A stretch of 61,328 bases of DNA, the filler included, from Bonamia ostreae (lineage: Eukaryota): NCBI GenBank assembly GCA_040357525.1. It is 17 parts of 17 records of this genome, joined end to end, with 100 filler letters (N's around TTAATTAATTAA, not from the genome) between each part and the next. Parts side by side here need not be neighbours in the genome. Positions count along the whole stretch, not along the records: positions 14,547 to 18,072 come from JBDODL010000482.1; 16 more parts are not named here. One strand, 5' to 3'. Of the stretch, positions 15,524-16,532 are shown piece by piece (positions within the stretch are counted from its first letter, which is position 1; every line of letters starts with the position of its first letter). Both the position numbers and the translations under genes were made by a program. The notes below the pieces were generated by a model. That model did not search any database, was not told the origin of the DNA, and saw only the letters and a list, made by a program, of their open reading frames with translations.

Positions 15524-16532
15524 ATGAGCTCGAATCGTTAATGAGATAACCAAAGAAGAAGAAGTAAATTTGAGAAAAGTCGATCGTCTGATCAGAAATT
15601 TTATTGATCGACAGATTGATTTTTTAATGTTAATGCGTCGAGATAGATATAATAAAAACGATTGCTGTGAGGAGCCACGTTACTTCAACGTTCGCATCCC
15701 TCTCCCGCCTCATGCGAAACCGGGGATTCCTGGTTGCCCTGGCGCTCCTGGCGCTCCGGGGAAACCTGGGAGAAGCATTGCAGGCCCTGTTGGTCCGAGA
15801 GGGCCTTCGGGCGCTCCGGGGAAACCTGGCATGTCGGGAAGACCTGGAAGCAGTGGTCCCAGAGGAATGGTTGGCGCGAGAGGACCAGCTGGCGCTTGCG
15901 GGGCCCCGGGAAGAAACGGAACTCCGGGGAAACCTGGTATGCCGGGACAAGCGGGTTGCCCCGGTGCCCCGGGGTTGCCGGGCGTTTCTTTTGGGAACAA
16001 CGACGAGCCTGAAATCCCGAGGGAAAGAATTGCCGAAAGACTCGAAGAACGCTTTAGCGAGGACGACGAACACCGCTCGAAGCACTATGATGAAGAGTCT
16101 TTGATCGAAAGGTTGCTCGAAAGGCTCGAAAAGCGCCACGGGAAGGATGACCACCACCGCCACCACTACCACCACGAGGAGTCTTTCTTGGAGAAGCTCT
16201 TGAAGAGAATAGAAGAGTGGCTCGAAGAACGCGAAGAGCACTACCATCACCACGGGCACCACCACCACAAACACGGATGGAAATGGCTGAAGAAGTTGGT
16301 AATGGAGTTGTTCGAAATGGAACACCACCACGGGCACCACTATTACGACGAGTCTCTATTGGAACGGTTTCTCAAAAGACTTGAAGAATGGCTTGAAGAG
16401 CTAGACGAACATCATCACCACGGGCATCACCATCACAAGGAAAGTTTAAGAGAACTGATCGCAGAATTCTTTGAACATGAAAAAGACCATGAAAAGTACG
16501 AAGAGAGAAGATACGTTCGTCAAATAGTTTAA
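15524..16532 (+). CDS. Collagen-like (Gly-X-Y) protein with His-rich/helical C-terminal repeats (intron 15537-15555)
   Basis: ATG 15524 plus a 19-nt GT-AG intron leads into the 15570 ORF frame. It has 6+23 Gly-X-Y triplets, then [21 protein letters not shown] helices alternating with HHHGHHHH tracts. Confidence 0.88.

Follow-up and report, generated by a model that had tools for sequence, protein, structure and literature searches.

A leaderless, cysteine-rich collagen-like protein family in Bonamia ostreae with a possible role in the haplosporid spore wall

We found that a collagen-like gene of Bonamia ostreae with an unusual histidine-rich tail belongs to a family of at least 22 genes on 18 contigs of the assembly, whose predicted products carry cysteines inside their Gly-X-Y triplets and begin without an evident hydrophobic leader. 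Eukaryotic collagens are almost always secreted, and a leaderless family of this kind would represent a different use of the collagen fold. We put at roughly 45% the probability that these are structural proteins assembled in the cytosol and hardened later by disulfides, most likely in the haplosporid spore wall, its operculum and wall-derived filaments. The histidine-rich helical tail is a one-off decoration of a single member, and the weight of our findings lies in the leaderless, Cys-rich collagen family.

The C481 gene and its predicted product

The window, the whole stretch of DNA analyzed (61,328 nucleotides), consists of 17 unlinked contigs of approximately 3.5 kb each, joined by N-linkers, and gene neighborhood is therefore meaningless outside positions 14547-18072, the contig (C481) that carries our gene. 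On its plus strand, a frame at 15528-16532 runs from stop to stop over 334 amino acids and ends with a TAA codon (16530-16532). A match to the Pfam collagen family (PF01391; E=1e-12, 48.1 bits versus a cut-off of 27.2) classifies the predicted protein as collagen-like, with no narrower class assigned. The sequence confirms the 6 + 23 Gly-X-Y triplets with internal cysteines reported in an earlier sequence-only reading: a first block of six triplets, one of them GCP (15723-15776), is separated by a two-residue break common to the subfamily from a second block of 23 triplets, which contains one GAC and one GCP (15783-15989). Proline occupies 17% of the X and 52% of the Y positions. Directly 5' of the collagen lie a CC pair (15663-15668) and a motif of the form [YF]-x-x-V-x-I-P-[LI]-P-P, which ends I-P-L-P-P in C481 (together 15663-15710) and recurs in our family alignments and in three proteins from outside the genome (P0236, P0249 and P0259). 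The CC pair had been placed within an N-terminal helix; it corresponds to residues 46-47 and follows the predicted helix (residues 9-40). AlphaFold2 single-sequence monomer models of the protein reached pLDDT values of 44.6 and 46.3, and a trimer prediction scored 0.15 versus a mark of 0.32, which is not evidence either way on a triple helix.

The protein contains 5 cysteines and 34 histidines, 33 of the latter C-terminal to the collagen. There, over positions 16020-16478, six amphipathic helical segments, including three strict Leu/Phe-Glu-Arg/Lys repeats with hydrophobic moments of 0.66-0.77, alternate with four His tracts (16152-16175, 16239-16274, 16323-16340 and 16410-16436), bearing out the described fusion of a collagen to alternating His tracts and amphipathic helices. 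The last 180 residues hold 33 His and 40 Glu, giving a net charge of -19 when His charge is left out. Seven helices follow the collagen in the AlphaFold2 model with a mean pLDDT of 44.6, a low confidence at which they do not count as structural evidence. We found no match for the C-terminal region among 3922 candidates at E<=0.1 (candidate lengths 183-585), and no usable match in the Atlas. The helix repeat recurs, without His tracts, in the paralogues C1270 and C118 and in C282 (L014:1471-2502), which has no Gly-X-Y run and is possibly a degenerate or collagen-less relative. His tracts of the C481 type occur in 1 of the 22 family members, C481 itself, and His richness grades in from C118, which has 22 His.

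The start of the gene can be read in two ways. In the model that we regard as plausible, translation probably begins at the ATG at 15524; a putative exon 1 of this ATG plus 10 nt (15524-15536) is followed by a putative tiny GTT...AAG intron, drawn at 22 nt (15537-15558), whose splicing restores the frame and adds a possible N-terminal amphipathic helix (15559-15626) that is coding under this model only. Alternatively, one of two in-frame ATGs at 15627 and 15633 (15627-15635) is used, giving a product of 299-301 amino acids; the N-terminal helix would then be untranslated and the intron unneeded. The paralogues start a few residues ahead of the motif, as these ATGs would in C481. Three observations count for an intron in C481: the paralogue C1848 has a 21-nt intron immediately after its ATG (read by eye); the thirty-three codons before the first in-frame Met of C481 are open, which holds for only 651 of 7568 non-coding 99-mers; and rescue by an ATG plus intron is a chance event in 31 of 495 AT-rich windows of a comparable kind. 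Against it, the coding score of this stretch is ambiguous, and the likeness between N-terminal and C-terminal helices is weak, being matched in score by 53 of 1119 short frames and by 1006 of 5000 shuffles. No reads span the intron junction, and sequencing run X1 has no cover at 14547-15808.

An intron of 19 nt had been proposed here. Its presence is plausible; the acceptor is an AAG run, so that a length of 19, 22, 25 or 28 nt would preserve the frame equally well. Conserved genes of this genome (EF-1alpha, cyclophilin, RPS13, oxidosqualene cyclase-like, SOD, USP14-like and Ubc) contain ten tiny introns that we recognized by eye; these measure 20, 21, 21, 22, 22, 22, 22, 23, 23 and 27 nt; none is 19 nt long, and with a mode of 22 they make a 22-nt intron the likelier one in C481. 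The available passages of one publication term B. ostreae introns canonical and do not give their size (PMC11069148). The spliceosomal introns of 20-27 nt seen in these ten places are mostly of the GTT...AAG/CAG type and stand alongside longer ones (window 19200-19900; L048, L050, L051, L056, L061 and L041).

With either start, the apparent absence of a signal peptide noted previously holds: the N-terminal hydropathy index of C481 is 0.31 versus 2.6-3.4 in secreted-looking controls. The divergent neighbor on the same contig (14663-15445, minus strand) encodes 260 amino acids with a signal-peptide-like start and has no Pfam match. Elsewhere in the window, a 1025-residue Cys-rich, secreted-looking protein without Pfam match (32959-36036, plus strand) and a multi-exon Cys-rich repeat protein with a membrane segment at its end (58626-60955, plus strand) are candidate surface proteins.

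A collagen-like family and its relatives

Paralogues had been suggested as a follow-up, and the genome indeed contains them. Genome searches matched 17 of 29 candidates with the C481 protein and 45 of 66 with PF01391; the count of 22 genes was reached after we dropped C1918 and C4004 (phage-like), C46, antisense frames and C282. Three layouts can be distinguished. Eleven genes, C481 included, have a block of 5-7 and then one of 17-25 triplets (layout A); six have about 30 triplets followed by shorter blocks (layout B); and five have about 6+9+7+6+13 triplets (layout C). All begin with a short polar peptide, often rich in Tyr, Asn, Asp or His, and the peak 9-residue hydropathy near the N-terminus lies between -0.6 and 1.4 in 22 of 22, compared with 2.6 and 3.4 in two secreted-looking controls from the same genome. 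This is a simple hydropathy index rather than SignalP, unseen upstream exons are possible, and the outside homologue P0249 scores 2.1. Cysteine is found in 95 of 845 family triplets versus 17 of 6201 in 113 generic collagen matches. Contig ends and GT-AG introns aside, each of the 22 reading frames is open. All 27 Gly are shared by C481 and C1270, as are 70 of 97 residues, whereas 36 of 53 four-fold sites differ, a pattern that indicates purifying selection between these paralogues.

We also looked for relatives outside the genome. Of 8000 candidates scored against the whole C481 protein, 113 matched, in each case over the Gly-X-Y part alone, and a search against clusters returned generic collagen clusters only. 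A search on the non-collagen parts, proposed earlier as a check, gave a divided result: the tail found no counterpart among its 3922 candidates, and the motif region yielded three homologues. A profile of this region had 117 matches among 1.84 billion representatives; the 27 that we read comprised these three, one protein of the family itself and 23 generic collagens. All three homologues (P0236, which is complete, P0249 and P0259) come from the source 'merc', a marine eukaryote catalogue. P0236 agrees with C755/C367 in layout and motif and in 6-7 of 8 cysteines. Its non-Gly identity is 51% to this pair, 37% to C481 and at most 24% to the 113 generic collagens, from which it follows that the subfamilies split before the organisms did. 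By sequence, P0236 is an orthologue that keeps the Cys positions in a marine eukaryote. A metagenome pattern scan gave 212 matches, of which none was confirmed as a family member, and a second scan, with at least 597 matches, gave 21 confirmed loci, every one of which proved to be generic Gly-X-Y when inspected.

A prolyl 4-hydroxylase, likewise suggested as something to look for, has a candidate on contig C638 (L063:763-1677), a gene of the collagen/plant type with an H-x-D motif. The closest solved relative of its product is the prolyl 4-hydroxylase PDB 2jig (E=1.5e-18, with two candidates scored). No hydrophobic stretch follows its likely first Met, in a gene that is cut by the contig end and whose 5' end was placed by eye. 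The gene fits hydroxylation of collagens in the cytosol but does not show it.

Comparison with known collagen systems

We compared C481 and its family with other short collagens. Mussel byssal preCols (D, P and NG) also combine a broken collagen block with segments rich in His, which could serve in Zn/Cu binding or as pH sensors. They are secreted ABCBA pentablocks with a collagen of ~150 nm, silk- or elastin-like flanks and His at both ends, according to the passages available (PMC9999432). C481 has 29 triplets, an acidic amphipathic-helix flank and one-sided His, so the preCol design invoked previously fails by this definition on collagen length, flanks and two-ended His. It is also not the principle of the collagen family, because the His tracts are private to C481. 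Cnidarian and myxozoan minicollagens (Ncol) share with the family a short Gly-X-Y core, richness in Cys and a multigene organization, and build a hard, disulfide-locked wall; the likeness is one of how they work. Available passages on minicollagens list a signal peptide, a propeptide, terminal Cys-rich domains and poly-proline flanks as requirements (PMC4195985). The B. ostreae proteins carry their Cys inside the triplets rather than in end domains; a domain of the CxxxCxxxCxxxCxxxCC type was absent from all eight family proteins and all three outside homologues tested, and a run of four Pro from all 11 proteins tested, C481 included. Short Pro runs are present in some members of the other B. 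ostreae collagen subfamilies. The proposed Cys-flanked nematocyst design accordingly breaks down on signal peptide, propeptide, Cys-rich domains and poly-Pro flanks, as far as these passages define it. An extrusive organelle, also raised earlier, is an unlikely site for the C481 protein where it forms by the secretory route, because a signal peptide is missing.

Nematode cuticle collagens form a large family of short, interrupted proteins with conserved Cys, and in these respects resemble the B. ostreae family. C481 differs from them in lacking a hydrophobic N-terminal segment and Col_cuticle_N (PF01484), which is not among its four Pfam matches at E<=0.1. The closest working analogy may instead be bacterial: Bacillus BclA and Pasteuria exosporium proteins are leaderless and collagen-like, are made in the enveloping cytoplasm and are deposited on the developing spore. 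BclA-type proteins are Gly-X-Thr-rich with a C1q-like head, whereas the B. ostreae family has Pro at Y, many Cys and spliceosomal introns, and Pfam finds no C1q-like head in C481.

A spore-wall model and its alternatives

The haplosporid spore wall is laid down within the episporoplasm. In our preferred reading, the collagen chains, being without a leader, would be made on free ribosomes and stay in the cytosol. Their Pro-rich Y positions suggest that the 29 triplets of C481 form a short, once-kinked triple helix, possibly stabilized by the C638 hydroxylase, itself apparently leaderless. The resulting rods may pack around the sporoplasm inside the episporoplasm, the site of wall deposition. 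Cysteines at X and Y would face outward, stay reduced during assembly and oxidize to inter-rod disulfides once that cytoplasm breaks down and the spore is exposed to sea water. C481 would add an amphipathic-helix tail for bundling, and its His tracts, through a shift in net charge from about -19 to about +14 with pH, or through Zn/Cu binding, could provide a reversible second cross-link.

The structural polymer suggested in the sequence-only reading, possibly of a spore wall, gains support from the haplosporid origin and the 22-member family and loses its preCol and nematocyst analogies. Available passages on haplosporid ultrastructure describe the spore ornament as wall-derived in both Bonamia and Haplosporidium (PMC4141087), and state that the walls of H. 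costale are first visible as dotted lines surrounding endosporoplasms within dense episporoplasm and mature to three layers (PMC9790386). The literature we searched, with the subscription journals that house much haplosporid ultrastructure mostly outside it, contained no haplosporid collagen-like or spore-wall protein. A bolder version, which we hold as doubtful, is that haplosporid walls and filaments generally consist of collagens with Cys in the helix that are assembled and P4H-hydroxylated in the cytosol and disulfide-hardened after release, outside the secretory pathway, that the intact retention of the family marks an undiscovered spore stage of B. ostreae, and that C481 is a metal- or pH-switched cross-linker. 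If our preferred reading is right, B. ostreae has retained the means to sporulate, and the family genes can serve to mark a hidden spore stage, whose existence or not bears on the persistence and spread of bonamiosis. Such markers can be checked in sequence data, by their presence across sporulating and spore-less Ascetosporea and by stage-specific expression.

A different structure is conceivable, and we consider it rather unlikely: the family may build cortical or cytoplasmic fibers of the microcell or plasmodium, or a coat exported without a leader that masks the parasite from hemocytes. Spores have been described in one Bonamia species only and not in B. ostreae, according to the passages available (PMC4141087), and those on mikrocytids give spores as unknown (PMC6133090). 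Similarly limited passages on H. costale describe a fibrillar, ribbed layer around some plasmodia (PMC9790386), which is another candidate structure for the family, and the orthologues come from a catalogue of marine eukaryotes without known life stages. Run X1 covers 15809-16321 and 16382-16536 at >=99% identity; that it is RNA is a guess. No sequencing run matching C481 is on record as RNA. If X1 derives from RNA of oyster-stage cells, the C481 gene is not strictly spore-specific. Against a non-spore role, so many outward Cys would be hard to explain in a cytosol that always stays reducing, the division of 22 genes into three fixed layouts suggests a structure built in several layers, and the family shows neither a membrane anchor nor a leader.

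For C481 alone, the tail could mainly be a Zn/Cu sink or sensor protecting a parasite that lives in metal-rich oyster hemocytes, with the collagen as a trimerization stalk. Oyster hemocytes store Zn and Cu, and the density of His and Glu in the tail, together with the lack of a His-rich counterpart among the paralogues and of a homologue in our candidate set, speaks for this reading. We judge it improbable, as the helix repeat is older than the His tracts and its presence in C1270, C118 and C282 points to an assembly role. Slightly less probable still is that the family represents a set of spore-wall genes passed down from ancestors that sporulated, now unused and intact only because sporulation was lost recently. 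The congener B. perspora still makes spores, and our selection signal, being between old paralogues, cannot date a recent relaxation; yet all frames are open, and C282 is the sole possibly degenerate relative seen.

It is very improbable that the C481 contig stems from the host oyster or from another contaminant, even though C481 itself has no conserved marker gene, tetranucleotide correlation did not discriminate and the assembly contains contaminant-looking contigs: two family genes lie on contig C444 beside an EF-1alpha gene whose product is 100% identical to the protein named Ef1a of Bonamia ostreae (next matches, 71-78%), close paralogues of C481 on C118 and C112 are neighbors of genes for SOD and RPS13 whose introns measure 22 nt, and the best outside match of the whole C481 protein spans its Gly-X-Y part only. 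Cytosolic SSU rRNA was not recovered from the assembly, and because k-mer binning was uninformative and the contig has no marker of its own, assignment of C481 rests on paralogy and intron style. These findings together uphold the earlier placement of the gene in the protist genome and largely refute contamination.

Several other loci deserve mention. The contigs C1918 (L029) and C4004 (L057), with phage-like collagens, are probably contaminants left in the assembly. On C72 (L049:103-975), a secreted-looking GH19 chitinase (E=1e-58) adjoins three collagen-like genes; chitin synthase 2 (PF03142) had no match in the incomplete B. ostreae genome. C46 (L056:5565-8192) carries, by eye, an oxidosqualene cyclase-like gene, which suggests retained sterol synthesis. 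On C1173 (L041:1492-1782), a polyubiquitin junction has a second unit that begins with Phe instead of Met, with no inserted residue.
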